The translations under genes were made by a program, and so were the position numbers. A DNA stretch of 58,370 bases from an uncultured Lachnospiraceae bacterium. Lineage in GTDB: Bacteria > Bacillota > Clostridia > Lachnospirales > Lachnospiraceae. The notes below the pieces were generated by a model. It had not been told where the DNA came from. It searched no databases and worked only from the letters and a program-made list of their open reading frames with translations. Where the stretch lies: NCBI GenBank assembly GCA_947624025.1, contig CANQIJ010000001.1:1-58370 (forward strand), given 5' to 3'. Positions 2,057 through 53,224 of this stretch are shown in pieces (positions within the stretch are counted from its first letter, which is position 1; every line of letters starts with the position of its first letter).

Positions 2057-2527
2057 TTACCGGAGCATATTGTTTTCCTTGAATGAGCAAAAGTCGTCGC
2101 CTGCATAGATTATAAAATCCAGCAGACCGACATCCATCAGTTCACAAGCGGATTTTAGTTTCTTGGAAACGCTGATATCTTCCTTGGACGGTTGTGCGCT
2201 GCCGGAAGGATGATTGTGCACCAGGATAATGTCCGATGAATTGCACAAAACCACTTTCTGAAAGATCGATCTCATATCACAGAAAGCGTGATCGATCGAC
2301 CCATGCGATATTTCAAATAATCCGATCAGGTGGCATTTCTTATCCATACACAGCAGGTACACATACTCTTCCGTCTGCTGATCCAACGCATAAAGTTCCC
2401 GGAACATCCGGCAGATTGCATTCGGACTCTGCAGAGTATCCATCAAGGGATAATTAACAGACCTCTCTTTTACAAGAGAGGCCGTTCTGTCGTTACTTAA
2501 GAGGGATTTGTACTGTGTAATTCTCAT
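2057..2527 (-). CDS. radC: RadC-like JAB/MPN domain protein
   Basis: Conserved N-terminal Glu plus the HNHPSG..PSKED JAMM motif; short JAB-only form typical of mobile elements. Confidence 0.9.
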   Translation of the reverse strand: MRITQYKSLLSNDRTASLVKERSVNYPLMDTLQSPNAICRMFRELYALDQQTEEYVYLLCMDKKCHLIGLFEISHGSIDHAFCDMRSIFQKVVLCNSSDIILVHNHPSGSAQPSKEDISVSKKLKSACELMDVGLLDFIIYAGDDFCSFKENNMLR

Positions 2528-2793
2528 ACCTCGCCCTCCTTGATCCTGTCTTCTACCATTTCCAGCAGTGAATCAATATTCCAGCCAGAGACGGCAACGA
2601 TAACACTGTTTACCAGATCGAAATCATGAGCAGTCTCGCACTTGTTGACAGCATCAACTATGCCTTTCACAATTTCATCCAGATCGTTATCCCATTCTGT
2701 GATTTTCTCATAGAAAACCTCAGCTACTTTGTATTCCTGAGTTTGATACAAATGATTCAGCCTTTCGGTTGAATCAATAACCTGCTTTGTCAT
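2524..2793 (-). CDS. Hypothetical protein
   Basis: Start MTKQVID (2793) after GAAGGAA; stop overlaps the radC start. Confidence 0.6.
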   Translation of the reverse strand: MTKQVIDSTERLNHLYQTQEYKVAEVFYEKITEWDNDLDEIVKGIVDAVNKCETAHDFDLVNSVIVAVSGWNIDSLLEMVEDRIKEGEV

Positions 2794-2815
2794 ATTTTTT
2801 TCCTTTCTACCTGTT

Positions 2816-3520
2816 TTAGGCGATCTGCCTGTAAACAGGATTTTTAGTATATCCGTCAAAAGCCCATAAAACGACTTCTTTCGGATTTCCACAAGCAACA
2901 GCGGCGATTTCCGCAGCGATATCCTTCTCCAGAAGCTCGTGGCAATAGACACGATATCCATTTACCTCCTCCGGATTCTTCGGGATATTATCACCGTCAT
3001 GGATGATCCATTCGCTTCCTTCATTGAAATACTCCACCTCGAAAGCATCCAGCGCATCCTTTGACCAGGATTCAGCAACATAGTAAATATCCTGCCAATC
3101 ACCCTGGCAGTATCCACGGATCATTTTATGTTTCCAGGTTTTCCCTGTTACCAGGGATAGCGTTTCGCACAGAACCCGTTCCTGTACGCCTGAATATTCA
3201 GCATACTCTGCAACCAGCAGCTTGATTTTGTGGATATCCTTTGTGCTGTAGCAGGGCTTTTCCGATCTCAGAAGATCGTTGATGGCCTCAGTGGGATTTT
3301 TATACCATTCAGTGTAATAACCGCCATTGTGAGTCCTCAGATCTTCAAGCGCCTCATAGAGTTCCCCGTTTTCCAACGCGTCAAAAACTCTGGAAAAAAC
3401 TTCCGGGCAATGGTCCTTATAATCCCCGTTACCCTTTGCCGCAATATCCTCTGACCATTCATCCAGGTCCATCAGCGGACTTTCCTGAATTTCCGGTGCA
3501 ATCTGTCTTGCATAAATCAT
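2816..3520 (-). CDS. Conserved hypothetical protein, first gene of the establishment-type operon
   Basis: 234-aa ORF with AAAGGAG RBS and an 'IRGYCQGDWQ' motif; follows a consensus promoter and structured leader. Confidence 0.75.
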   Translation of the reverse strand: MIYARQIAPEIQESPLMDLDEWSEDIAAKGNGDYKDHCPEVFSRVFDALENGELYEALEDLRTHNGGYYTEWYKNPTEAINDLLRSEKPCYSTKDIHKIKLLVAEYAEYSGVQERVLCETLSLVTGKTWKHKMIRGYCQGDWQDIYYVAESWSKDALDAFEVEYFNEGSEWIIHDGDNIPKNPEEVNGYRVYCHELLEKDIAAEIAAVACGNPKEVVLWAFDGYTKNPVYRQIA

Positions 3521-3580
3521 GTTAATCTCCTTTCCAAGGTCTTCACCTCTTAGAAAATATTTTTAGTTTCATCTATGTTC

Positions 3581-3712
3581 AACCGCCGAGGCGGATTTTT
3601 TTTTGACAAACAAAAAAGCAGCGGAACGAGTGTTCCTCTGCTAAATTTAAAAAAAATAATAAATTTGTAATATTATATGTGTATATTATACCATGATCAC
3701 AGGCGTTTGCAA
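3581..3712 (-). promoter_or_regulatory. sigmaA promoter plus structured leader, copy 1
   Basis: TTGCAA(3712-3707)-16-TATAAT(3690-3685) with extended TG, then an AGCAGAGG..GCTGCTTTTTT hairpin and an ATCCGC..GCGGTT hairpin. Paralogous to 8937-9070. Confidence 0.7.
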
Positions 3713-3729
3713 GCGGAAATCTTATCCTG

Positions 3730-3758
3730 TTGACATCCGGAAACATATGTTCGATAAT
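3730..3758 (+). promoter_or_regulatory. sigmaA promoter with Gram-positive LexA (Cheo) box
   Basis: TTGACA(3730)-17-GATAAT(3753). GAAACATATGTTCG at 3740-3753 is CGAACATATGTTTC on the reverse strand, matching CGAACRNRYGTTYC. Confidence 0.85.
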
Positions 3759-3778
3759 GTTCTCAGAAGGAGCAACCC

Positions 3779-5284
3779 ATGAATCCTATTTATATTGCTA
3801 TTGATTTAAAATCCTTTTATGCATCCGTGGAATGCGTGGAGCGCGGTCTTGATCCGCTTATTACAAATCTTGTAGTAGCTGATGAAAGCCGGACAGACAA
3901 AACCATCTGCCTGGCCGTCTCACCTGCCCTGAAGACTTTCGGGATCCCAGGCCGTCCAAGGCTCTTTGAGGTAAAAAGCGCTGTAAAGAAAATCAACGCC
4001 GGGAGAAGGAATGCAGCGAAGGGGCATAAACTGCACGGCTCTTCCTATTTTCTGCCGGAGCTTACTGCAGATTCATCCCTTTTCCTGGACTTTATCATCG
4101 CAGTACCGCAGATGGCCACCTACATGCGCTACAGCACGGACATCTATAAGATATACCTGAAATACATTGCCCCGGAGGATATCCATGTCTATTCCTGCGA
4201 CGAGGTATTTATGGATGTATCACAGTACCTTGCCACCTACCATATGACTGCTAGGGAACTGGCAGAGAAAATGATCCACGATGTTTATCGCACTTTCGGA
4301 ATCACAGCTACGGCCGGCATCGGCACGAATCTCTTCCTGTGCAAAATCGCAATGGACATCGTGGCAAAGCATATGCCGCCGGATGAGAATGGTGTCCGAA
4401 TTGCCGAACTGGATGAGATGACATACCGGAAAACCTTATGGGATCATACGCCGATCACAGATTTTTGGAGAGTCGGCAACGGAACAGCCAGAAAGCTCTT
4501 CCTAAATGGAATGGAAACCATGGGAGATGTGGCCAGGTGCTCCGAAGAAAACGAGGATCTGCTTTACCGGCTTTTTGGCATAAATGCGGAACTTCTCATT
4601 GATCATGCCTGGGGATGGGAACCCTGTACCATCGCGGATATCAAAGCCTATAAACCGGAATCAAACAGCGCAAGCTCCGGGCAGGTCCTGCAGCGGCCTT
4701 ATACCAGCAGCGAAGCACGGCTTGTTGTCCGGGAAATGACGGAAGCCCTGGCCTATGATCTGATGGAAAAGAACGTCTGCACAAAGCGCATGGAGCTGAC
4801 GATCGGATACGATGCGGAGAATGCCAAAAATGAAAAGATCCGGGCTGAATACAAGGGAAAATTCTATTTAGACGGTTACGGCAGGCGGATCCCGGACCAT
4901 TCCCACGGCACGACCCACCTGGAGGACTATACCTCTAATGCTGCCCCGATTTGTATGGCTGTGCTTTCCCTATATGACCGGATCGTAAACCCGATCCTCT
5001 TAATCCGGCGGATCAATGTCTGTGCCTGCGACATTCTAAATCAGGCGGATGTACCTGTCAAGGAAGAAATCTATGAGCAGCTGGATCTGTTCACGGATTA
5101 TACGGCAAAGGAAAAGGAACGGGCTGAGGAAAAGATCAAACAGGAAAAAGAACAGGCGCTTCAATCAGCTGCTCTTACTATAAAGAAGAGATTCGGGAAA
5201 AATGCTCTGCTGAAAGGGTCGGATCTTCTGGAAGGCGCCACCACTATCGAGCGTAACAACCAGATCGGAGGACACAGAGCATGA
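3779..5284 (+). CDS. Y-family DNA polymerase (UmuC/ImpB/MucB-like)
   Basis: IDLKSFYASVEC and YSCDEVFMD catalytic motifs, TATAGIG, C-terminal 'QLDLF' clamp-binding motif and 'IGGHRA' ending. Confidence 0.95.
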   Translation: MNPIYIAIDLKSFYASVECVERGLDPLITNLVVADESRTDKTICLAVSPALKTFGIPGRPRLFEVKSAVKKINAGRRNAAKGHKLHGSSYFLPELTADSSLFLDFIIAVPQMATYMRYSTDIYKIYLKYIAPEDIHVYSCDEVFMDVSQYLATYHMTARELAEKMIHDVYRTFGITATAGIGTNLFLCKIAMDIVAKHMPPDENGVRIAELDEMTYRKTLWDHTPITDFWRVGNGTARKLFLNGMETMGDVARCSEENEDLLYRLFGINAELLIDHAWGWEPCTIADIKAYKPESNSASSGQVLQRPYTSSEARLVVREMTEALAYDLMEKNVCTKRMELTIGYDAENAKNEKIRAEYKGKFYLDGYGRRIPDHSHGTTHLEDYTSNAAPICMAVLSLYDRIVNPILLIRRINVCACDILNQADVPVKEEIYEQLDLFTDYTAKEKERAEEKIKQEKEQALQSAALTIKKRFGKNALLKGSDLLEGATTIERNNQIGGHRA

Positions 5285-5694
5285 GCAATTATGACGATAT
5301 CATTAACCATGAGCATCATGTATCCCGGACCAGACCGCAGATGGCCATGATCAACCGGGCCGCGCAGTTTGCTCCCTTTGCTGCATTGGTCGGCTATGAT
5401 GATGAGGTCACAGAGACAGCAAGGCTTACCGAGGAGAAAATAGAGTTATCAGAAGAGAAAACCGCCCAGATCAATGCTGTTCTGCAGGGGGTTCAGTCCC
5501 GAATCGCTGAAAAACCTCAGATCATCATTACCTATTTCAGAAAAGACGAGAAAAAAACCGGCGGCTGCTATCTTCCGCTCTCCGGCGCGGTAAAAAAGCT
5601 GGATTTATACACGAAAAGGCTGCACATGGAAAGCGGCGAGGAGATCGCCTTTGAGGATATCGCGGAGATCGCCTTGGAAAGTCATGAGACGTAG
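5281..5694 (+). CDS. YolD-like protein (partner of the Y-family polymerase)
   Basis: 'YDDII..H..SRTRPQM....RAAQFAPFAAL.GY' motif; translationally coupled to the polymerase. Confidence 0.85.
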   Translation: MSNYDDIINHEHHVSRTRPQMAMINRAAQFAPFAALVGYDDEVTETARLTEEKIELSEEKTAQINAVLQGVQSRIAEKPQIIITYFRKDEKKTGGCYLPLSGAVKKLDLYTKRLHMESGEEIAFEDIAEIALESHET

Positions 5695-5696
5695 AA

Positions 5697-5731
5697 ATGC
5701 CGCACAGTCTATATAAAAGGCCATGCGGCAT
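5697..5731. terminator. Hairpin between convergent genes
   Basis: ATGCCGCA...TGCGGCAT inverted repeat. Confidence 0.5.
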
Positions 5732-5739
5732 AGAGAATA

Positions 5740-6276
5740 TTAACCCTGGGTTATCCTTTTTATCATTTTGGCGCGGCGGTCCTCGGGTAATTCTTTTATG
5801 AGATCATTTGCATATTCGATCTCCGTTTTAGGAATCATTTCGCCGGTTTTAGAATTATAGCGGAAAATGGAATGTCTTCGGTTATCCTGGGAGAAAACAT
5901 GAGCACCATAGTGTTTTTTTGCGTTTTTCCAGTCCCTCATCTTTTTATTCTTCAAATCATTTAAAAAGGTATTGTTTGGATTCTGAACCGTGTAGCAAAA
6001 ATTGTTGATGAAGACGCTGTATGTCTGGCTGACAGGCTCTTTTATTACAATGGTATGTAATATATTCCCTGTTTTCTCAAACACTTCGGGTTCAAGGATA
6101 CCCAGTTCTCCTTTTACCAGCTCGTCTCTGCTCCAAGTCTGAGGAAATACCTCGATTTCCAGTTTCAACTTGTTTCCGAAGACTTTCTCCTTCAGCTTTT
6201 CAGAATGTTCGATCATTGAGTTGAAGACGTTCATTACCTCCTGTAAATTTGGCATAAAAATTTCGTTGTACTGCAT
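5740..6276 (-). CDS. Hypothetical protein
   Basis: 178-aa ORF directly downstream of the 6280-6696 gene. Confidence 0.65.
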   Translation of the reverse strand: MQYNEIFMPNLQEVMNVFNSMIEHSEKLKEKVFGNKLKLEIEVFPQTWSRDELVKGELGILEPEVFEKTGNILHTIVIKEPVSQTYSVFINNFCYTVQNPNNTFLNDLKNKKMRDWKNAKKHYGAHVFSQDNRRHSIFRYNSKTGEMIPKTEIEYANDLIKELPEDRRAKMIKRITQG

Positions 6277-6279
6277 TCC

Positions 6280-6696
6280 TTATTCCTCCTCCTCGTAATT
6301 TTTTTTAAGATCGTCTATAGAAAAGACAATCCCTTCGCAATAGATCCGCTGCATTAAATAAATCAGAAAGGTCTCGTGGGGAATGGTAGTCTCAAATCTC
6401 CACTCGATTCCTCCCTCCTGCCGCCAACTTTCTTCATCTCTCATTATTCCGATCTTGTTTGGCTTGTCTTCGTCCTCATGCCATTCTGAAAGCCCATCCC
6501 GGTCAAAGAAAACTGCTGGCTGAATGCTATCCGTATCGACCAAAGCTCCGTCAAACTCGAAATAATCGTCTTCACTTATGTACGCGATGACGTAGCCATT
6601 ATCTCTAGCAATCTGCAGTTCATCCTCTGTAAATTGTAACAGGGAAATATCCGATTGTCTACCGTCGAGCATTTGGGCGTATTCCTTCAGATTCAT
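6280..6696 (-). CDS. Conserved phage-type hypothetical protein
   Basis: Start MNLKEYA (6696) after AAAGGAG. The 'DD..EF.GA' and 'W..ET.IPHETF.I.....YCEGIVFSI.DL' pattern is one I recall from phage proteins. Confidence 0.7.
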   Translation of the reverse strand: MNLKEYAQMLDGRQSDISLLQFTEDELQIARDNGYVIAYISEDDYFEFDGALVDTDSIQPAVFFDRDGLSEWHEDEDKPNKIGIMRDEESWRQEGGIEWRFETTIPHETFLIYLMQRIYCEGIVFSIDDLKKNYEEEE

Positions 6697-6862
6697 ATTT
6701 TCTTCTCCTTTCTCGTGGATTTGTTCTATGCACTGACTGTAACATAGAAAAATGTTCACGAGGGAAGAATTTTTTATTAAAAAAAAAGAAAATCGCACGA
6801 TAGTCTTGTTTAAATCGCGCGATTTGTATATAATATATATAAAAAGCAAAGGAGATTTTGCT

Positions 6863-7078
6863 ATGTCAATCACCGCAACAGAATTTAAAACTAATTTTGG
6901 CAAGTACCTCATGATGGCCGAGAGCGAAGACATATATATCACGAAAAACGGAAAAGTCATAGCCAAACTTACAAATCCCTACCAGAATCGTGTAGATATG
7001 GCACAGTCGTTGTTTGGAATTATTCCGGCAGATATTACCGCAGAGGAAGCAAGAGAAGAAAGGATTGAAAAAATATGA
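6863..7078 (+). CDS. Phd/YefM-family antitoxin
   Basis: MSITATEFKTNFGKYL...IYITKNGKVIAKL is the typical Phd N-terminus; AAAGGAG RBS. Confidence 0.9.
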   Translation: MSITATEFKTNFGKYLMMAESEDIYITKNGKVIAKLTNPYQNRVDMAQSLFGIIPADITAEEAREERIEKI

Positions 7079-7494
7079 GGGCAATCATTGACACCTGCAT
7101 TATAATAGATGCCCTGCAGAAAAGAGAACCATTTACGGCAGATGCAGAAAAAATCTTTCTTGCTGCGGCCAACATGCATTTTACCGGCTGCCTGACGGCA
7201 AAATCCGTGACGGATATTTACTATATCATGCATAGATCTCTGCACAGCAACGAGCAGGTACGGAAATCCTTGGAATCGCTGTTTCAGCTGTTCGAGATCG
7301 TGGATTCCGCTGCCATCGACTGCAAACGGGCACTATCCTCTCCCGTGTCTGATTTTGAAGACGCAGTAATGATTGAAACCGCTGCAAGGATTGAGGCTTG
7401 CATCATAACAAGAAATATGCACGACTATATGGACGCAGCAGTTCCCGTATATCTGCCTTCGGAATTTCTGAAAAATCTTGCGGAAGATTCTTGA
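7075..7494 (+). CDS. PIN-domain (VapC-like) toxin
   Basis: IIDTCIIID, DFEDA and ITRN..D PIN motifs; overlaps the antitoxin stop. Confidence 0.9.
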   Translation: MRAIIDTCIIIDALQKREPFTADAEKIFLAAANMHFTGCLTAKSVTDIYYIMHRSLHSNEQVRKSLESLFQLFEIVDSAAIDCKRALSSPVSDFEDAVMIETAARIEACIITRNMHDYMDAAVPVYLPSEFLKNLAEDS

Positions 7495-7512
7495 AAACAG
7501 CGCCCAGATGTA

Positions 7513-7602
7513 TTGACATAAAACAGAAAAATGGTATAATAAATACAGTTAAAGACAGAGAGAAATTCCATTTGACCAGCAAAGGGGATTCTCTCTTTTT
7601 TT
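7513..7602 (+). promoter_or_regulatory. Consensus promoter followed by a terminator-like leader hairpin
   Basis: TTGACA(7513)-16-TATAAT(7535) with extended TG, then AGAGAGAAATTCC...GGGGATTCTCTCT followed by a T run, before ORF 7640. Confidence 0.6.
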
Positions 7603-7639
7603 GTTGGATGAAAGGAACGTTGAAAGGAGAAGATAGATC

Positions 7640-7975
7640 ATGAGAGACCAGAAAAACTTATTAAAGGTATGGTTAGACAGAAAACTCACAGAGGAAATCA
7701 AGGAAGCGCTGCAGAGAAAAGATATTCCTAAGTATCACTGCATCAGGGAACTGCTTGCAGCCTGCGTGGAAATTTACGAAAAGGCTGAAGCCAACTTCAT
7801 CAAGGAAGGCAAAGACCTCTCCGCGTATGGCGGCGGGGGCGCAGGGATCCCGATTACACCCCTGCAGAAGGAATTTTTACTTTCCCCGGAAGCAGAGGAC
7901 ATCTTCTGCACAAAAGAAATGCAGGATTTCCTTGGATATCTGCGTAAATACAGTATTCCCAAGCTTCATATTTAA
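7640..7975 (+). CDS. Hypothetical protein
   Basis: 111-aa ORF with AAAGGAG RBS, its own promoter and a terminator. Confidence 0.65.
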   Translation: MRDQKNLLKVWLDRKLTEEIKEALQRKDIPKYHCIRELLAACVEIYEKAEANFIKEGKDLSAYGGGGAGIPITPLQKEFLLSPEAEDIFCTKEMQDFLGYLRKYSIPKLHI

Positions 7976-7984
7976 CAAAGGTCA

Positions 7985-8025
7985 AAAAGAGGACTGCCCC
8001 ATAAATGGGTAACAGTCCTTTTTCT
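7985..8025. terminator. Bidirectional terminator
   Basis: AGGACTG...CAGTCCT stem with A and T runs on both sides, between convergent genes. Confidence 0.7.
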
Positions 8026-8505
8026 TTAGTCTTCATCAACGATAGGATACATCGTAACTACAGAGAAGGGCATTCCTGTATTGGTGTCACGCTCTCCACC
8101 ACCGTAGATATTTTTGGTCAGTACAATGCGATAGGAACTGACTTTTTTTATTCCACCGTTGGGTAAAACCATCCTGCCGATGGGTCCATCAAAGGAAAAG
8201 TTTTCAAATTCCTTTTCCTGGATGGAATTATCCCTCAAATAAGGGATAAGGTTTTTCTCTATGAAATATTCGTCGCTGAATAAGTCATAGAGCAGGACAT
8301 CAACGGTATTGCCATCCGTAAACGATGAAACAACCGCCTTTCTGTCCTGTTTCTTTCTCCTTAAAAGTTCTTCGTCGGATAACCCGACATGGTATGTGGA
8401 GATGTGCATACCATTAGACATATCTGCGTTTGCCAGATTCATACGATCCAGTTTGCGCAGAATCTCATTTGCTAAATGATCCATGATAATCTCCTTATGG
8501 TACAC
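8026..8505 (-). CDS. RNase A-like domain protein (CdiA-CT RNase A type)
   Basis: H...YHVGLSDEEL..R, SSF and C-terminal VVTMYP motifs characteristic of this toxin fold. Confidence 0.65.
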   Translation of the reverse strand: MYHKEIIMDHLANEILRKLDRMNLANADMSNGMHISTYHVGLSDEELLRRKKQDRKAVVSSFTDGNTVDVLLYDLFSDEYFIEKNLIPYLRDNSIQEKEFENFSFDGPIGRMVLPNGGIKKVSSYRIVLTKNIYGGGERDTNTGMPFSVVTMYPIVDED

Positions 8506-8590
8506 TCGCCCTCCGGTAGGCTGTGTCTAACACCGCCTACAGTGGCGTATGATCCCATTTTCCGGAGGATCATGTTATTGAAAGAAAAAG

Positions 8591-8827
8591 TTATGAAACT
8601 GCTTTCCATATTCCACCAATGCACTGCAGCTTTACGCCGGCATCTGCCGCCTCTGCTACTGCCTGTGCAATGGTTTTCTCCCATCTGCTCACTACGCTGG
8701 ATATATACTCCTGTGCAGTTTTACAGTTGGTTTTAAACCGACGGCTCATACGATCCTTAGCCGTTTCTGTTTCGATCTGTGCCTCGATTGCAAGACGGTT
8801 TAATTTCTTAATGTAATAGTTAGCCAT
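8591..8827 (-). CDS. Small hypothetical protein
   Basis: Start MANYYIKK (8827) after AAAGGAG; first gene after leader copy 2. Confidence 0.6.
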   Translation of the reverse strand: MANYYIKKLNRLAIEAQIETETAKDRMSRRFKTNCKTAQEYISSVVSRWEKTIAQAVAEAADAGVKLQCIGGIWKAVS

Positions 8828-8936
8828 AATAGACTCCTTTCTACTGATTGAATCAGTTTGCTGCATTTTAAGAAAGGCACGAAAAAAACAGCCTATAAAT
8901 AGCCTGTTTCACGTTTCCTTTCGGTTGCTCTATTTT

Positions 8937-9070
8937 AACCGCTATAAGCGGATTGTTAAGGTTAATATATAAAAAAGCAGCGAATCCGAGGACCCTCTGC
9001 TAAAATTTTAAAATGATAAAATTAAAAATATTTTATATTTTGATTATAACCCTCCCCCATAATTTTGCAA
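8937..9070 (-). promoter_or_regulatory. sigmaA promoter plus structured leader, copy 2
   Basis: TTGCAA(9070-9065)-16-TATAAT(9048-9043), with the same AGCAGAGG..CGCTGCTTTTTT and ATCCGC..GCGGTT hairpins as 3581-3712. Confidence 0.7.
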
Positions 9071-9117
9071 GTGTTTTCTGCAAAAACAACCATTTTAACC
9101 CTGTTTTCAGCCTTGTG

Positions 9118-9161
9118 AAAAAAGTAGCGCCATCGCTCTGGTAAAGTAAGGCGCTACTTTT
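9118..9161 (-). terminator. Intrinsic terminator closing the Cas12f-like locus
   Basis: 12-bp stem AAAAGTAGCGCC/GGCGCTACTTTT ending in a U tract on the minus strand. Confidence 0.75.
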
Positions 9162-9203
9162 AGGTTTTACCCTGCTATTTGCAGTTTTGCCATATAACTT
9201 TTA

Positions 9204-9239
9204 GTTTGGTTACTATGCTGTTTTGGAGCTTATCGAAAC
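9204..9239 (-). CRISPR. Single 36-bp CRISPR-like repeat downstream of the dCas12f-like gene
   Basis: Minus strand GTTTCGATAAGCTCCAAAACAGCATAGTAACCAAAC with GTTT...AAAC ends; 25/36 identical to 10607-10642. Confidence 0.6.
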
Positions 9240-9251
9240 GTTTCCAATACC

Positions 9252-10535
9252 TTACGCGGTCACAGGCTCCTTTTCATTTGCTTTTTCCTTCTTTTTTCCT
9301 GTCTTCTTTACTTTTTCCGCAAAATCTTCTGCCTGTGCGATCTGAAAAGCGTCTGAGATATCATCCTCTTTTGACACATCTTCCAGCGGCTTAGGCGCAT
9401 AATCCACTTTACGGACCACGATGCCATACTGTGCCGCTTTGTATGTGACAAACTGCTGGAACTCGTAAATTGCCCAGTTATTCAATACCCTGTCTTTGGT
9501 ATTAAGAGTTTCCTCAAACTCCAGATTGATATATTTTGCGGAATTTTCTACAGCAAAGTCCACTATTTTTCTGGAAAGGTAATGATTGTAAGTCCGGTTA
9601 AAATTCCGCTCATATTTGTGGAACTTCTCGAAGGGCTTCATCTTCTTGTTGTAGCCGTGTCCGCCGGCATTGGAGGTAATAGTACACTGAAGACGGTAGC
9701 GCTGTTCATGGATCTGGGCGCGTTTGCGTCTGATCTCCTCAGTATGCCCTACTAAAAGATAAAACGGCTTCTTCGTTTTATTCTGTGCTGCATTGAGAAC
9801 GCAGACTGCGGGAACGGTACGCCCGAGAAATACGCCGACTGTTTTATCTTCTTCCAGACTGACCTCCCTCTTCGGGATCTCCATACACATATTCAGGATG
9901 ATCTTTGTGCCGGAGATCTGGATGGTCGATCCGCCTACCGTATATTCTTCCTCAAAGATTCTCTGGATCTCTGTCCTGAGTGCCTGAGACCGGTGAGGAG
10001 AACCGAAAACCAACTTAAAAGTAATATCGTTGGCAAATTTAATGAATACCTCCAGATCGGTCTTATAAAGATGTTCGAGAAATTCCTGATGGGATCCGTA
10101 ATTGTGATAGAGTCCGCAGTCCGCCAGGGACTGTGACCTCAATTTAACATAGTCCCCGTGTACCAGGAGCGGTCCGTCCATACGGTAGGAGGGAAGGGAA
10201 ATCTTTCCGTAAAGAAGCCCCTTCTTACAGGCTGTTGCAAAGTCCTGTTTTACTTTCATAGAAAGGCTGCTGGTAGAAGGAAGACCTTTCGGGAGTTTAA
10301 TAGATGCGTCATAAGCACTTCCCTTTTTACTTGTGCTGATTCTGGTATAAAGTTTGTTCAACTCTTTCCTGTCTTCTGCAGATACATCCTGAACGGCCTC
10401 CATATACAGGGCTGTCATAAATTGATTCATTGCCTTATTCTGGTTAAAAGCGCCATCCCGCAGATAACTATAGACTCTGTTTACTTCCTCTTTATCCCCT
10501 ACGGGAATAAGTTGGATTTTTCTGTTTAAAAACAT
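9252..10535 (-). CDS. Cas12f/TnpB-family RNA-guided protein, predicted nuclease-dead
   Basis: 427 aa with Cas12f hallmarks (SLPSY, GGHG..KK, NH.LSRKIVDFA, INLE, W..YE.QQ...YKA..YGI.V). RuvC-I reads VGVFLG (D>F236) and the C-terminal CxxC zinc finger is absent. Confidence 0.85.
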   Translation of the reverse strand: MFLNRKIQLIPVGDKEEVNRVYSYLRDGAFNQNKAMNQFMTALYMEAVQDVSAEDRKELNKLYTRISTSKKGSAYDASIKLPKGLPSTSSLSMKVKQDFATACKKGLLYGKISLPSYRMDGPLLVHGDYVKLRSQSLADCGLYHNYGSHQEFLEHLYKTDLEVFIKFANDITFKLVFGSPHRSQALRTEIQRIFEEEYTVGGSTIQISGTKIILNMCMEIPKREVSLEEDKTVGVFLGRTVPAVCVLNAAQNKTKKPFYLLVGHTEEIRRKRAQIHEQRYRLQCTITSNAGGHGYNKKMKPFEKFHKYERNFNRTYNHYLSRKIVDFAVENSAKYINLEFEETLNTKDRVLNNWAIYEFQQFVTYKAAQYGIVVRKVDYAPKPLEDVSKEDDISDAFQIAQAEDFAEKVKKTGKKKEKANEKEPVTA

Positions 10536-10606
10536 AGTTTCTATTAAGCCTCCGTCTTCACTGCATTATTCATCCAACTCCAAATATACATAATTTCGCA
10601 TTCTGA

Positions 10607-10642
10607 ATTTGGTTACTATTTATTTTTATAGGTTTCTGAAAC
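10607..10642 (-). CRISPR. Single 36-bp CRISPR-like repeat upstream of the dCas12f-like gene
   Basis: Minus strand GTTTCAGAAACCTATAAAAATAAATAGTAACCAAAT; shares the 3' ATAGTAACCAAA 12-mer and the 5' GTTTC with 9204-9239. Confidence 0.6.
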
Positions 10643-10708
10643 CTCATAACAAAGTTTTGGTTGAGTGTCACTTAGACCTCACCCTCCGGACGCCAAATCG
10701 CCCGTTAT
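10643..10708 (-). ncRNA. Putative Cas12f tracr/omega-like RNA scaffold
   Basis: ACGGGCGATTTGGCGTCCGGAGGGTGAGGTCTAAGTGACACTCAACC forms stem GGGCG/CGTCC then a GGTGAG..CTCAACC stem, resembling the 5' ends of clostridial Cas12f tracrRNAs as I recall them. It abuts the repeat. Confidence 0.55.
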
Positions 10709-10715
10709 AAATCAG

Positions 10716-11516
10716 TTATACTGTCTGCTCTCTGATATGATCCAACTCGAAAGGAACAGCACCTTCTCCGTCTGAGATCCACCGGATCAGACAGCGCTGG
10801 ATATCAAATTCTATGGCTCTCTGCGTCAAGGAATTATTTCTTGCACAGTACATCCTTAGATTATCCATATTGTAGGGAATACCCATATCATTCAGCACAA
10901 GCTGGATGTAAGCCAGTTTTTCACTGTTATCCAGGTCCTTCAGTTCCTTTTTGATGGAGAATCTGCTTTTCAGAGCATCATCCATGATATCGATCCGGTT
11001 CGTACAGCCGATCAGGATGGCATCCACCTGTCTGCGCTTCATCAGATCGAGCTCCTGCATGATCGTCACGGTGATTCTGCTGATCTCTCCGCCAGTGGCC
11101 GCGCTTTCCGTTCCTCTTTTTTGGGAAATAGCATCAATCTCATCCAGCATGAAGATCGCCTTGGTCTTGGACATATACTGGAAGATATCACTGATGATTC
11201 CTGCGGTTTTACCGAATACACCGTCAAACAGTTTGGCAAAGTTGATATAGACAAAATCAAGGTCAAAACAATGGGCCATATACCGGCCGAAGGTCGTTTT
11301 CCCTGTACCGGGAACGCCGTAAAGCAGTGTACTGTTCAGATAATAGACCCCGTATTTAACCAGTTTATCTTTCACTTTCTGCGCATTTCGCACATCCTCA
11401 ATGATTTCGACCTGCGTTTTGGAAACAAAGTACCTGGCCATCGGGAAATCATCACAGTATTCCGCTACAAGGTATGGTGCTATATGTTCCGGAATTTTTA
11501 ATCTTGTTTTTGACAT
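10716..11516 (-). CDS. AAA+ ATPase (classic clade, single domain)
   Basis: Walker A GVPGTGKT, Walker B FMLDEID, SRH TNRIDIMDDALKSRF. Confidence 0.9.
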   Translation of the reverse strand: MSKTRLKIPEHIAPYLVAEYCDDFPMARYFVSKTQVEIIEDVRNAQKVKDKLVKYGVYYLNSTLLYGVPGTGKTTFGRYMAHCFDLDFVYINFAKLFDGVFGKTAGIISDIFQYMSKTKAIFMLDEIDAISQKRGTESAATGGEISRITVTIMQELDLMKRRQVDAILIGCTNRIDIMDDALKSRFSIKKELKDLDNSEKLAYIQLVLNDMGIPYNMDNLRMYCARNNSLTQRAIEFDIQRCLIRWISDGEGAVPFELDHIREQTV

Positions 11517-11616
11517 GTATTATCCTTTCTAAAACCTTGAAAAATGATCTATCAATTTCTATTTCGGCTGTCTGCAGTTTTGCTCTGCAGAAGAAACGGG
11601 CCTTTAACAGGCCTTT

Positions 11617-12069
11617 TTATCTGAGAAACTTACTCTCTTCACCGCTGTACAGAAAACGTTGAATATATTGTTCGTTCGATACAGAATCGGACGTTGACTG
11701 AAATGCTTTATACCACTTTTTTGCCAATTTACCCATGGGTAAGGCCAAGATAAGATTAATATCTCTTTCACCCATTTCGATATCCGATATACGCTGTTCT
11801 TTATGATAACGCGTATCGATATCTTTTTTATCTCTTAAATAGAGCCATACGATTTTGGCAGCCAGAATCAAATCCAAGATCCAAATGGATGTAGTAATGA
11901 TGGGAAACTGCATAATAAATTTAATTAAATCATTATCTATGAATGTAAGACAAAATAATATATATCCTCCAAGTATTCCGCCAATTGACAACCCGGTTAA
12001 AAGGTAATTAAAAAAAATCAAGGTATATACTGATACGACCGCTAAGCTCAAAATCCGTGAACAGATCAT
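11617..12069 (-). CDS. AT-rich membrane protein
   Basis: Two to three hydrophobic segments; visibly more AT-rich than its neighbours. Confidence 0.55.
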   Translation of the reverse strand: MICSRILSLAVVSVYTLIFFNYLLTGLSIGGILGGYILFCLTFIDNDLIKFIMQFPIITTSIWILDLILAAKIVWLYLRDKKDIDTRYHKEQRISDIEMGERDINLILALPMGKLAKKWYKAFQSTSDSVSNEQYIQRFLYSGEESKFLR

Positions 12070-12334
12070 ATAACATAGGGATCAAAGTTGAAATCAGAAA
12101 AAATAAAATTAGTGCGCCTATAAAAAACGTAATTTTCATCGAAACCTAAACGGCGGAAACCGTATTCTCCTTTCTGCTAGTATATTTGTGGATTCTTCCA
12201 CAAACAAATGGGGTAATGCGCGGGCGGAATATATTATCCCGCCCGGCGTTAGGTGTCCATCCCAGATATTGTTATCAGGGGGGGGTCTTGAACGCAGCAT
12301 TGTTTCTTCCCCACAGAACTGGGCACAGGTAAAA

Positions 12335-13024
12335 TCACGCGGAAATTGCCTGCGCCGCGCCATCTTTTTCAATCTCCTTCTTTAATGCCGCCATACGATC
12401 ACTCACATCTGTATGATCTGAATACTGATCTTTCAGATCCTCCATCTCCGTCTGCTTCAGATCCAGTTCGGCCGCAGCCTGCGCCGCATAAAGCCGCTTG
12501 TTCGCCTTTTTCTCCCACTCGTTTACGCTTTTTGTGCCGTCAGTACCATCAGGCATCTTGAACCTGGATATACGTTCTGTTGCCTTAGCCACAGCTATGG
12601 TCTGCTTGATCGTATCAGACTTCTGCTCCAGAAGGTCCAGCTCATTCTGCATCTTCGCGTATAACTCGTTCATTTTTTTTGCGTTGGCCTGCGCCGTCTC
12701 GTACATGCGTTTCGCCTGGTTGAGGTTATTCTCGCGATCCGCCTCCACGCGCAGGAACTTTTCGGCATCCTCCTCTTTTCCGGCCTTAAGTGCCTTCTTT
12801 GCGCACTTGTGCAGCTCATCCAGATCCTTTTTCACAGACTCGAAAGTATCCTTGGCAATCTTCTCTTCCGCCATCACCCGCGCTGTTTCCAGTTTAGTTT
12901 CAGCCAGGTTTTGCCTTGTCTGCCTGATCTGGTCCGCAAGCATCACCTCCGGATCCTCACACTTGTCCAGTACATTGTGGACATTTGCGGAAAAAATTGA
13001 CCTGATTCGATTACAAATCCCCAT
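12335..13024 (-). CDS. pspA: PspA/IM30-family protein
   Basis: MGI.NRIRSIFSANVH..LDK.EDPE.ML.Q N-terminus and long coiled coil; start set at ATG 13024. Confidence 0.9.
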   Translation of the reverse strand: MGICNRIRSIFSANVHNVLDKCEDPEVMLADQIRQTRQNLAETKLETARVMAEEKIAKDTFESVKKDLDELHKCAKKALKAGKEEDAEKFLRVEADRENNLNQAKRMYETAQANAKKMNELYAKMQNELDLLEQKSDTIKQTIAVAKATERISRFKMPDGTDGTKSVNEWEKKANKRLYAAQAAAELDLKQTEMEDLKDQYSDHTDVSDRMAALKKEIEKDGAAQAISA

Positions 13025-13072
13025 GTTTTCCTTTTCCTCCCTTTCCTTTTTCCTCCAGATCAAAATATACTG

Positions 13073-13684
13073 CTATTTTTCCGTAGCATTTTCGGTACAC
13101 ACCACCTCCTCTTTTGTGTCGACAGGACTCTCTTCCTGTATGGTCATTGCCATTGCCATGTGAAGATCCTTTAAGAACATCCTTGCACAGATGCTCTCTG
13201 CCAGGTGTGCTTTATTCGGCCCGTACAGGAAGAAAAAGAATGCTGCAAAAGAACACATAAGAACAGGAAAATTCGATTGCACAAACTGCAGCACAGCCGG
13301 ACACCTGTTAAAAAGGATCGTACAACCCGTGATGGAGATGCAGGTGAAATAAATACAGAAGAGAAAAGATAAAATATCACCAAACGGATTCTTTTTAAAA
13401 TATCCTTTTAAGAATCGATACACAACGGCATAGATAGTTGTGGACGCCGCGATCACGATAGCAAATACAGGATTGAAGCAGTGCAGCACAATGACCAAAA
13501 GCAACATTTCCAGGAAAACCGGAATGATCCTGTAAATGAGATTGCTGATCAGAAATTGTATCTTGAAGCTGCGGTGAGCCATGACTTCCTTTTTATATTC
13601 TGCAAATATGACGTCAAACATCTCATGCGCATTTTCTTTCGTGATCCTTTGATTTTCCGTGATTTCATTCAGATCCATGATCAT
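13073..13684 (-). CDS. Multi-pass membrane protein
   Basis: About four TM segments, GGAGG RBS, upstream of pspA. Confidence 0.7.
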   Translation of the reverse strand: MIMDLNEITENQRITKENAHEMFDVIFAEYKKEVMAHRSFKIQFLISNLIYRIIPVFLEMLLLVIVLHCFNPVFAIVIAASTTIYAVVYRFLKGYFKKNPFGDILSFLFCIYFTCISITGCTILFNRCPAVLQFVQSNFPVLMCSFAAFFFFLYGPNKAHLAESICARMFLKDLHMAMAMTIQEESPVDTKEEVVCTENATEK

Positions 13685-13716
13685 CCTCCTTCCTTCCCCT
13701 TTCCGGTATAATGTAT

Positions 13717-13744
13717 ATTATATCCGCAATATCCATTTTGTCAA
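13717..13744 (-). promoter_or_regulatory. sigmaA promoter for the membrane protein-pspA unit
   Basis: TTGACA-16-TATAAT on the minus strand. Confidence 0.7.
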
Positions 13745-13796
13745 TATAGATTTACATATTTTTTAGGATTTAGGAATTATTATGGAGTTTAAAACT

Positions 13797-14265
13797 AAAA
13801 ATCCCGGCGGTCTCATTTGCCGTCGGGATTTCTAGTGATGAAATATGAAAGGATTTCAACATACGGCTTCTCGGTATGCTGAAACACCGGTGCAGGGAAC
13901 CGACCCCTGCTATTGAAAACATTCATTTTCAATCTTTCCAAACAAAACCGGCGCGTGACTAAACGAAAGTCAGAACGTTTAGTCACGATGCAGGGTGTGC
14001 ATTAGAAGGAGTTCAACCATGATCAGGTGGAATCACTGGTACCGCAGGAAACGTCACAAAATTGTTCCTGTCTTTGTTTCTTCCGGGTCCTTCTGTTACC
14101 CGTGGACGTCCATTTCCCGTTTCCACCGATGCGGCAACCGGACATTGAAATCCGGCCTTCCGATATCTGATACAGGTGGCCTTCCTCTATCTGATACTGG
14201 CGTATCGCCCCTGATACCTTTGCCGCCTTTCCAAACTACTAGTAAGCCAAAAAGGAGATTACATA
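13797..14265 (-). ncRNA. Candidate large structured non-coding RNA (unassigned)
   Basis: Lies between a promoter-like site (TTGACA 14298-14293, TATAAT 14277-14272) and a terminator (13797-13831); contains many hairpins and no convincing ORF. Confidence 0.4.
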
Positions 14266-14314
14266 TTGTATATTATACAATAATGAGGCCTTTGTCAAGA
14301 AGTTTCTGCAAAAA

Positions 14315-14917
14315 TCATTTATCGGTGACATTTCTTAAGCCGCGTACCGCTTCATTATTGTAAAAGCTGTCTGTAAAATCAGTCAGTTCCAGCATGGCAT
14401 CCTGTCCGGACAGTTCCGGCTTATAGCTTCGTGCGCTTGTCATGGCATCCCAGGCATCCACTACGGAAACAATCTGCGTTTCCTGCAAGAGTCCGGTCAC
14501 TTTATTTCCATCCGGATACCCTGTTCCATCGATATGCTCATGATGATGCAGGATGATATCAAGCACCGTATTTCCATATCCCTTCATCATGGCAAGTTCA
14601 TACCCGTACACCGGATGAAGCTTGATCTGTTCAAACTCCTCCTGCGTCAGAGCCCCCTTCTTTTCCAGAATAGAGAGAGGGATTTTGATCTTACCAATGT
14701 CATGCAGCACTGCTCCTTTTGCCAGATCGATCAGCCTTTTCGAATCCATGCCCCAATTATACCCGATCTGCACAGACATAAAGGCAACATTCAGGCAGTG
14801 TATAAAGGTACGTTTGCTGTATTTATTTAAGGAACAGAGCAGGTCTGCAGTATCCGGTTCAATAATGATCCCGTCAAGCAGGATCCTTGCTCTTTGTTCT
14901 ATCGATTTTTTCTCCAT
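14315..14917 (-). CDS. HD-GYP domain phosphodiesterase
   Basis: HDIGK, HP..G, HHEHIDGTGYP and D.WDAMTS.R.YK motifs are all intact. Confidence 0.9.
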   Translation of the reverse strand: MEKKSIEQRARILLDGIIIEPDTADLLCSLNKYSKRTFIHCLNVAFMSVQIGYNWGMDSKRLIDLAKGAVLHDIGKIKIPLSILEKKGALTQEEFEQIKLHPVYGYELAMMKGYGNTVLDIILHHHEHIDGTGYPDGNKVTGLLQETQIVSVVDAWDAMTSARSYKPELSGQDAMLELTDFTDSFYNNEAVRGLRNVTDK

Positions 14918-15815
14918 TCTGGCCTCCTGAACACTCATACTGTTTTTTAGTTACATACTCTTTTAGAATCCGGTACGCCCCGCAGTCATAGTAGGCCTGG
15001 TTTTCCTCCATGCAGATCGTTCTTCTGCCCGTGCGGACTGCAGCAGCGCCTGTTGTCATGGATCCGGCGAAGGGATCCAAAATGATATCCCCGGGGTCCG
15101 TGTAAGTCTTTATCATTTTTTCCATCAGGGCAAGCGGCTTCTGTGTAGGATGCAGACTTTCTTTTTGGGTGTCCTTCGCATATTTCCAGATACTGGTGGG
15201 ATACCGTTCCGTACTGTCATAGCTGTGATTTTCGATCCTGTCGTAATTACTGCTGTTTCTGTTATGCTGATGGTTCGCAAGGCTTGTTTTCCTCTTGTGC
15301 CCAACCGTTTTCTGCGGATGATAAACCGGCTTTTTTTTATAGAAGACGCAGATGTCCTCATGACTGCGAAGCGGCATCCTTCCAGCGTTCTGGAATCCTG
15401 TCGGCTGTGTTTTCTCCCAGATCAGGTTGTAGCGCCACATGGCACGGTTGCTGTCCATCAGCCTAGCCGTAAACATCCCGTTGGCAAACAGGATGATGGC
15501 GCCGTTATCCTTGATGATCCTTCTAAAGTGGGTCCACAAGCCCGGCAGTCTGTGCTCTTTATAATAGGCAACCGCCTCTTTGCAGGAACCCTGTCCGGTA
15601 TGATAACAGTACAAAAGATATTCCTCTTTCGTCATAGGGATCTCTTTTCCGGGTAAAACCACATAATCTTCCAGGGGAATCCAGACATCCCATCGATTCT
15701 TTGTCTGTCCGTAAGGCATATCTGTCATAATGCAGTCAATCGATTTGTCAGGGATCTGCTGCATCAGGAAAAAGCAGTTCCCCTGCCATATCTCAAAAGG
15801 GTTATTCTCAAACAT
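14874..15815 (-). CDS. Orphan beta-class N6A/N4C DNA methyltransferase
   Basis: Motif IV DMPY near the N-terminus, HPTQKP, motif I DPFAGS near the C-terminus; no adjacent restriction enzyme. Confidence 0.9.
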   Translation of the reverse strand: MFENNPFEIWQGNCFFLMQQIPDKSIDCIMTDMPYGQTKNRWDVWIPLEDYVVLPGKEIPMTKEEYLLYCYHTGQGSCKEAVAYYKEHRLPGLWTHFRRIIKDNGAIILFANGMFTARLMDSNRAMWRYNLIWEKTQPTGFQNAGRMPLRSHEDICVFYKKKPVYHPQKTVGHKRKTSLANHQHNRNSSNYDRIENHSYDSTERYPTSIWKYAKDTQKESLHPTQKPLALMEKMIKTYTDPGDIILDPFAGSMTTGAAAVRTGRRTICMEENQAYYDCGAYRILKEYVTKKQYECSGGQNGEKIDRTKSKDPA

Positions 15816-52697: not shown

Positions 52698-53114
52698 TTA
52701 ATTACCGCCACTACCTTTCATCCAGTCGGATATACTGTCTGCTGTTGTACCTAACACGCCGCCATCCGTACCAATTACTTTAAATACGACATAAACTACG
52801 ATACAGCCGACAAGACTCCATTTGGCGAATGCAAGCATTTTGTCATTCTTTGAAAAAAACAAAAGAAATAAATCAATAGCGACAAGCAGCCAGCAGAGAC
52901 TGTCACAGTAAAGACTGGAAAAATTGCTTAAAAGATTCTGTACCGTTGTCTTTGCATTGGTCGTAAGCTGAAGATCACCGGCTCTTATCATACCCTGTGC
53001 GAATAAAAAGCCGGGAAGGGCGGAAGCTTTTGCTATGATTTCGCATTTCCGATTCTGATAATAGTCGAAAAAAACATTCTTATCAGAGGTTCTTGCTTTT
53101 ACTTTTACCTGCAT
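52698..53114 (-). CDS. Small 2-TM protein (VirB2/pilin-like by position)
   Basis: Two hydrophobic helices; first gene of the T4SS unit; AAAGGAG RBS. Confidence 0.5.
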   Translation of the reverse strand: MQVKVKARTSDKNVFFDYYQNRKCEIIAKASALPGFLFAQGMIRAGDLQLTTNAKTTVQNLLSNFSSLYCDSLCWLLVAIDLFLLFFSKNDKMLAFAKWSLVGCIVVYVVFKVIGTDGGVLGTTADSISDWMKGSGGN

Positions 53115-53224
53115 TTTATATTCTCCTTTCTGCTAGTATAGTATACTATGAGAATAGCACACCTGGAATCATTTGCAAGCACTTTTTGTATAATATACCA
53201 AAAAGAAGATAAAATGGGCTTATT

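Follow-up and report, generated by a model that had tools for sequence, protein, structure and literature searches.

The guides of type V-F1 Cas12f1 effectors share a core of stems, a pseudoknot and a repeat:anti-repeat helix (PMC12255294), and their lengths are given as 129–156 nt for the natural guides of MG119/Al3Cas12f (PMC13186708), 210 nt for the SpCas12f1 sgRNA (PMC12255294) and 233 nt for the BlCas12f sgRNA (PMC13670948). Cas12f1 works as an asymmetric homodimer on one RNA and reads a 5' PAM. Natural single guides of 85–105 nt, formed by fusion of tracrRNA and repeat, are described for the sigmaE-associated dCas12f proteins (Hoffmann et al., PMC13472631); the same study describes a second dCas12f cluster that neighbours CRISPR arrays, whose putative gRNAs lie on the upstream side of these arrays and whose targets are promoters, and a fusion of tracrRNA with half a repeat has also been proposed (Altae-Tran et al., PMC10691335). 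The TldR repressors (bioRxiv 10.1101/2023.11.30.569447, PMC13622181) likewise combine a nuclease-dead RuvC protein with a single RNA and are predicted to repress promoters, and types IV-A and V-M (Cas12m), interference-dead and carried on conjugative elements, repress plasmid genes, providing precedents for both plasmid CRISPRi and the borrowing of host adaptation (PMC11656645). Related reports are PMC13622181, 10.1101/2025.01.20.633832, 10.64898/2026.03.27.714800 and 10.1101/2023.03.03.530964.

The locus considered here lies in a 58,370-nt stretch of DNA from an uncultured Lachnospiraceae bacterium (the window). In protein size and fold, guide elements and 3' spacer it resembles the Clostridia type V-F1 Cas12f1 systems (CnCas12f1 8HR5, RhCas12f, OsCas12f, AsCas12f1, SpCas12f1, Al3Cas12f and BlCas12f), and neither those systems nor our locus include cas1, cas2 or cas4. 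However, the window protein is nuclease-dead, its scaffold is only about 60 nt long and sits in cis within the leader of an array, the repeats and the leader end are of type II-A, and scaffold and repeat together come to 98 nt against 129–233 nt. With the sigmaE-associated and CRISPR-adjacent dCas12f the locus shares a dead Cas12f and a probable guide fused from tracrRNA and repeat; the published cases have rpoE or HTH partners or concern a Chitinophagaceae example, whereas the window has no sigma factor, keeps the full 36-nt repeat and has relatives with an intact nuclease and the same fused layout, and the main text of PMC13472631 makes no mention of Firmicutes, Bacillota or Lachnospir-. Unlike TldRs, which descend from transposon TnpB with its omega-RNA, the window protein is nested among array-associated Cas12f and comes with CRISPR repeats; from types IV-A and V-M it differs in its effector and in the need for a scaffold RNA and, while IV-A borrows the adaptation of host type I-E systems (PMC11656645), the borrowed signature here is that of type II-A. 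The junction ATTTGAG|GTTT, 36-nt repeats and spacers of about 30 nt are common to our family and the group-1 arrays of type II-A (Van Orden et al., PMC5382924), but the window lacks cas9, cas1, cas2 and csn2, its repeat precedes the spacer in the direction of reading, and a Cas12f pseudoknot has taken over the 3' end of that repeat. Our main reading, to which we give a probability of roughly 0.6, is that the dead Cas12f works with a scaffold encoded in one piece with the first repeat, likely a ready-made single guide that would let the protein block transcription at a promoter.

The unit occupies the minus strand at 10607–10704 (98 nt), 71 nt upstream of the 427-aa Cas12f1-like ORF, and reads, from 10704, hairpin 1, hairpin 2, AAA, anti-repeat and 36-nt repeat. 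Hairpin 1 (10687–10704) has 6 bp, with pair probabilities of 0.96–1.0 in the window sequence, and carries in its loop the motif ATTTGG (10693–10698), the 5' strand of the pseudoknot; hairpin 2 (10659–10683) has a TGAG...CTCA core and a bulged A. The anti-repeat (10648–10655), whose partner in the family register is repeat positions 20–28 (10615–10623), overlaps a remnant of a group-1 type II-A leader end (10643–10649). The first repeat (10607–10642) is II-A-like and ends 3' in CCAAAT, which pairs with the hairpin-1 loop, and the spacer fused to the scaffold follows at 10577–10606 (28–30 nt, its 3' end being uncertain). An orphan second repeat (9204–9239), also on the minus strand, lies just past the stop codon of the cas gene (9252–10535) and is followed by a conserved trailer without a spacer; the window array thus holds one repeat–spacer unit and one orphan repeat, where relatives have short arrays. 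The two repeats are identical at 25 of 36 nt, and an 11-mer common to both occurs exactly twice in the 2.5-Mb assembly. Contigs from a second sample span 10518–10760 with no difference among those listed; in a related strain, a repeat abuts 10569 and the stretch 10577–10606 is absent. The sequence beyond 9204 was also considered as a second spacer and rejected, the same trailer following repeats twice in the sister element. This trailer (8930–9203, minus strand) contains a hairpin at 9120–9161, a TTGCAA-16-TATAAT promoter at 9043–9070 and an AT-rich block, and the module recurs in the sister element (L001 ~5580–5800 and 9100–9215; G014:C5 113513), reminiscent of the repeated promoters of leading regions. 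Taken by itself, the unit of the window has only a slight folding advantage over shuffled sequences (z −1.99, equalled by 7 of 200), and an Rfam scan of 8000–13000 returned no family for the unit, the three weak matches being unrelated and below the gathering score.

The case for a structured guide comes from the relatives. We collected 107 Cas12f loci from genomes, metagenomes and viral contigs and aligned 32 hand-picked, well-delimited and related units, from which the structure itself was proposed; one of them, L086d, is mis-aligned at the anti-repeat. In this alignment the four-helix structure has 96.8% of its 900 cells paired and changes on both sides in 18 of 29 pairs, a level reached by none of 500 shuffles, while slid controls gave 34–46%. 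Hairpin 1 is paired in 97.4% of cells with both-side changes at 5 of 6 pairs, hairpin 2 in 95.4% (5 of 9) and the anti-repeat:repeat helix, helix 4, in 95.9% (5 of 9), and the pseudoknot between the hairpin-1 loop and the repeat 3' end is paired throughout (100%), with compensatory changes in 3 of its 5 pairs and the variants TTTGG:CCAAA, TTTGA:TCAAA, TTTTG:CAAAA and CTTTG:CAAAG across the family. Because the structure had been proposed from these same 32 sequences, we checked the pseudoknot, which is absent from the covariance model, on 63 further model matches from 36 loci: an exact complement of the loop core stood at the repeat end in 29 of 41 distinct new units, against an expectation of 8.3 (maximum 14 in 2000 trials) with shuffled loops and ends, and most of the misses are units in which hairpin 1 is mis-registered or absent. 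We have little doubt that these 98 nt encode the guide-RNA scaffold used by the neighbouring Cas12f protein. In the window, both hairpins and all six pseudoknot pairs are intact. The anti-repeat helix has lost strength: of the 7 pairs in its core 5 hold, the pairing energy is −1.8 kcal/mol with repeat 1 against −4.4 with the orphan repeat, and a slipped register of 6–8 bp is predicted, which in the predicted fold has 6 bp and is capped by an AGGTTT/AAACCT hairpin. The palindrome may therefore act as a cap, in the dead clade only.

These results bear unevenly on a sequence-only reading of the same DNA. It had described a compact tracr-like scaffold in cis with the repeat, next to a nuclease-dead Cas12f, and both the family fold and the defects of the protein agree with it; its motifs are all present on the minus strand where it put them, and its GGGCG-ATTTGG-CGTCC stem and its second stem are the covarying hairpins 1 and 2. 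It had named a lack of covariance among homologues as evidence that would count against it, and we see strong covariance instead. Its register of repeat and anti-repeat was wrong, however: the repeat 3' end belongs to the pseudoknot, and the partner of the anti-repeat lies deeper within the repeat. The duplex it proposed between TTTGTTAT and GTAACCAAA has pair probabilities of 0.01–0.03 in the window and is rejected across the family; together with the AGGTTTC/GAAACCT palindrome it gives 66.3% paired cells against a shuffle mean of 67.3%, a value equalled or exceeded by 448 of 500 shuffles. In the window sequence the palindrome is predicted to form (pair probabilities 0.65–0.98), but it is no conserved helix, being fully paired (6/6) in only 4 of the 32 units, namely the window, two sister units and L062d; across the family this stretch spans the leader–repeat junction motif (GAG|GTTT). 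As to compactness, the unit is indeed shorter than the natural Cas12f1 guides compared, but it is no record next to the published dead Cas12f. That reading overlooked two things: the type II-A leader motif at the junction, and a layout common to the whole family, nuclease-intact phage relatives included.

The unit is widespread among the relatives and accompanies their cas genes. With near-duplicates left out, 81 of the 107 loci were given to the covariance model, which found 136 matches in 75 of them, all on the strand of the gene, and none in 15 host II-A loci. One unit was found in the window's own assembly, three in the genome of the sister element, and others in 2 of 121 further genomes of the genus, one of these standing alone. 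Relative to the cas gene they occur upstream, downstream or in both places, and in every case a short array follows immediately on the 3' side; their length is 77–162 nt (median 104; n = 78, duplicates included). There are also fully collapsed units of 69–81 nt, or up to 86 nt over the intervals given here, in which the anti-repeat, a short loop and half a repeat replace the full repeat; these are candidates for the smallest natural Cas12f scaffolds (L041:2852–2937, L095:4293–4370, L089:4310–4390 and L020:4399–4467), and one of them has a GAAA-containing loop and lies directly upstream of a gene with a RuvC-I Asn. Their existence implies that the fold works in one chain.

Several arrangements were noted in passing. 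The stand-alone unit (L160, G033:C4:15887–15994, minus strand) consists of scaffold, repeat and guide, borders a low-GC island and has no cas gene closer than 1.5 kb, and its pseudoknot carries a compensatory change of its own. The sister element (L001) has four scaffold units, at 2193–2250, 2808–3080, 5319–5510 and about 9020–9075, one of them without a repeat and another without hairpin 1 that truncates a homologue of the window ORF 5740–6276; in this element, the units appear to move by recombination. The X5 contigs show still other orders of gene, array and AAA ATPase gene, and at L008:3490–3650 an array holds the same spacer three times.

The sequence in which the scaffold is embedded bears the signature of a different CRISPR type. 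The seven bases before the first repeat read ATTTGAG in 16 of the 32 units, with near variants in the others; in the window they have drifted to TTATGAG, keeping TGAG|GTTT. Together with 36-nt repeats, ATTTGAG|GTTT marks the leader junction of group-1 type II-A arrays and is essential for adaptation in Streptococcus thermophilus (PMC5382924). In host genomes, a first, stricter junction pattern gave no hit in 301 genomes, and the loci were then located through csn2: 250 genomes from the same family yielded 26 csn2 loci, and the exact ATTTGAG|GTTT is present at 19 of these. Repeats of our family are identical to the best host II-A repeat at 19–30 of 36 positions, against about 13 for shuffles, a similarity that is equally high for the reverse complement, so that the orientation follows from the junction only; the first repeat of the window matches one host II-A repeat at 25 of 36 nt. 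The window thus has the junction and the 36-nt repeat of a type II-A array, and no cas9–cas1–cas2–csn2 beside them. Type II-A systems insert new spacers at the leader–repeat junction and, as the scaffold lies within such a leader, the most recent spacer would come to lie after repeat 1, joined to the scaffold. Judging from these signatures, the integrases of host Cas9 systems likely write the spacers of the mini-array. We found no cas1 in the window's assembly or in that of the sister element and no csn2 in the former; the loading of spacers must therefore have occurred in another host. A literature search returned no description of a Cas12f scaffold in a II-A leader, and the clade may appear in supplements (V-U38, V-U40-43; Hoffmann Extended Data Fig. 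1a).

The protein encoded at 9252–10535 on the minus strand has the size and fold of Cas12f1 and an anti-repeat and pseudoknot RNA of the tracr type, encoded in cis, and lacks the D-E-D triad and the C4 zinc finger. The RuvC-I Asp is replaced by Phe236, the RuvC-II Glu339 and the Asp aligned to RuvC-III are kept, and the zinc finger is deleted. Its best sequence match is CnCas12f1 (8HR5, E 7e-43), all 14 PDB sequence hits being of the Cas12f type, and Foldseek ranks Cas12f at the top for the predicted fold (8HR5, E 2e-20; model pLDDT 70, TM ~0.5) and Cas12m at rank 36. Among the homologues in the matches listed (~55–62% identical), 116 of 120 keep both the RuvC-I Asp and the zinc finger, while two close relatives (82% and 67% identity) share both defects; the window protein, P0002 and the sister L001 form a single dead clade (support 0.999). 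Elsewhere in the 96-sequence tree, in which 78 sequences are D-E-D, RuvC-I is missing from three or more additional branches. Further independent losses in the family, to Asn or His, were noted in L041, L062–L080, L079 and P0096, several with two or three scaffold–array cassettes per locus, and no targets were found for the spacers of these loci. In three elements the gene has kept an open and conserved frame and, judged from a dN/dS of about 0.13 against the sister gene, a rough value as dS is near saturation, the window protein is under purifying selection. As it is conserved despite the loss of the RuvC-I Asp and zinc finger, the protein is predicted to bind DNA without cutting. A reading as TldR or IS605 TnpB, whose mobile forms come with TnpA or in multiple copies, was rejected: the gene is single-copy in the assembly, scores below the NCBIfam TnpB cut-offs and is nested among array-linked Cas12f relatives. 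A search of PLSDB plasmids and INPHARED phages at E 1e-40 gave no match.

What such a protein would do is indicated by the sister locus. Its fused spacer matches 29 of 29 nt in the same genome, at G014:C43:955–983, and the match reaches from the −35 TTGCAA as far as the first T of TATAAT in a TTGCAA-16-TATAAT promoter, which has a DUF6100 gene on one side and genes encoding signal-peptide-like proteins on the other. A perfect match in the own genome is compatible only with a non-cutting effector, and as protein matches link contig C57 of the window's assembly to C43 and also to the end of C5, the target is probably on the same element. The 5' flank of this protospacer is CCCGAAAA, one protospacer being too few for a PAM; in the hunt for a PAM, two spacers of intact loci searched against viral contigs returned the arrays and, beyond these, a single partial match of 22 nt, and when one array was compared with 17 viral records the matches were confined to repeats. 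The fused guide of the sister further agrees over 17 nt with two promoters on the element of the window (window 53184 and C125:5246), partly because it starts with common −35 context; the former, at 53168–53184 (minus strand), is the −35 region of ORF 52698–53114 and may be a cross-element target of the sister's guide, the window's own guide not matching it. Of the four sister spacers tested, the other three have no target in their own genome. For the window spacer, the best match in its own assembly is 13 nt within a coding region, a length reached by 24 of 300 shuffled spacers; nothing rose above chance in the sister element, none of 60 genus genomes had a match at up to 2 mismatches in 20 nt, and viral contigs gave one 19-nt match to an unrelated record and nothing above chance. 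The 13-nt match, on contig C22, had a promoter-like look and was rejected for lying in a coding region; a likeness of 11 of 13 nt between the window guide and the promoter at 9043–9070 was set aside for missing the 5' seed of the guide. With a promoter match in the sister and no target above chance for the window, repression is supported for the clade, where we consider it quite probable, and presumed for the window copy.

Under our main reading, hairpin 1, hairpin 2, the short anti-repeat:repeat helix and the 5-bp pseudoknot, as delineated by covariation, would form a scaffold with the same kinds of elements as the stem, pseudoknot and repeat:anti-repeat core of Cas12f1 guides, and an effector without the RuvC-I Asp and zinc finger would hold its target DNA uncut. 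The AAA ATPase gene (10716–11516, minus strand; PF00004, E 1e-23) ends 11 nt before the scaffold and is adjacent in the sister locus too, and none of the promoter-like sites listed falls between the gene and the scaffold; read-through from it is a likely source of the transcript. The ends of this transcript would be trimmed and its duplex of 5–9 bp left uncut, giving scaffold, repeat and about 20 nt of guide, and the mature RNA would probably be a single chain. With the scaffold lying in a mini-array leader that bears a type II-A integration signature, a host Cas1–Cas2–Csn2–Cas9 machinery would insert its spacers right after repeat 1, and the newest of them, joined to the scaffold, would direct the protein to a sigma-70-type promoter, as seen at the sister locus and presumed for the window, the target of whose spacer is probably on an unsampled co-resident or competing mobile element.

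Against a guide that is single by design stand the downstream repeats of relatives: all repeats of their arrays retain both the anti-repeat and the pseudoknot sites. The scaffold must hence be able to act in trans as well, and this is equally in keeping with a processed tracrRNA. The locus could then be an ordinary dual-guide system with the same repressor role, its tracrRNA and pre-crRNA being co-transcribed, cut between anti-repeat and repeat and re-paired. The linkers between the two vary widely, as the range of unit lengths (77–162 nt) shows, and of the two repeats in the window it is the orphan that forms the more stable duplex with the anti-repeat. Collapsed one-chain units exist, however, the anti-repeat of the window overlaps the leader end with no free linker, and a duplex of −1.8 kcal/mol with repeat 1 would seem too weak for efficient re-pairing in trans; we find a dual guide unlikely, though deserving serious weight.

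The same weak duplex, with its two mismatches, and the drifted leader end could instead mean that the window copy is a decaying relic, its scaffold inherited from active phage systems and its guide left without a target or a working duplex. The single spacer without a target found, the orphan repeat without a spacer, the assembly without cas1 or csn2 found and the different arrangement of scaffold, repeat and gene in related strains would all agree with decay, but the intact pseudoknot and hairpins, the open reading frame conserved in three elements and the perfect promoter target at the sister locus make a relic improbable. The promoter target bears also on the idea that the dead protein is a recruiter or decoy, guiding for example the AAA ATPase or another protein of the element, or an activator. 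Dead Cas12f and Cas12k are known as recruiters (PMC13472631, PMC11656645), and the AAA gene, with a dN/dS of 0.04, adjoins the locus in the window, in L001 and in one X5 contig. The position of that gene relative to the cas gene varies, however, and the sole mapped target extends from −35 to −10, a position at which a bound protein would by itself shut out RNA polymerase; the neighbours are the AAA ATPase, a PspA-like protein and unknown proteins, with no transposase or TniQ found, and no sigma-factor family was found among the 52 window proteins scanned, so that the operon of sigmaE-associated dCas12f is not seen here. A recruiter, decoy or activator is accordingly very improbable.

Returning to the single-guide repressor, the unit would offer a naturally minimal Cas12f guide with a covariation-defined fold, of 98 nt with its repeat and 69–81 nt in the collapsed relatives, and a naturally dead effector of 427 aa for CRISPRi, with many intact relatives for editing. 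A single clade captures the proposed intermediates of the tracr–repeat re-fusion behind RNA-guided transcription factors. More tentatively, and we think less likely than not, a Cas12f clade of gut phages and plasmids may have fused its tracrRNA into a stolen II-A leader, so that host Cas9 adaptation writes spacers onto a single guide; its repeatedly inactivated members would be transcription factors that gain promoter targets by CRISPR adaptation, and its collapsed members the smallest natural Cas12f scaffolds. The PAM recognized in Cas9 adaptation sits on the other side of the protospacer than a type V PAM, and whether a type V effector can use spacers picked by the Cas9 adaptation machinery is a question that can be tested.

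The window belongs to a conjugative element, with genes for a coupling protein, a TraG/VirB4-like ATPase, Rep3, ParA/ParB and a ParM-like protein and a GC content of 45% against 51% for the assembly; the sequencing runs that contain its sequence are listed as rabbit gut metagenomes from two studies. Parts of the element are found on contigs C1, C16, C26, C159, C57, C88 and C125, about 138 kb together, and are homologous to C5 and C43 of the sister genome. The cargo at 2057–15815 looks like a plasmid leading region, with genes for RadC, a Y-family polymerase-like protein and its small partner, an antitoxin/PIN-like pair, PspA/IM30, an HD protein and an N6/N4 methylase, and within it, at 8026–8505, lies a gene for a protein with a CdiA-type RNase domain.
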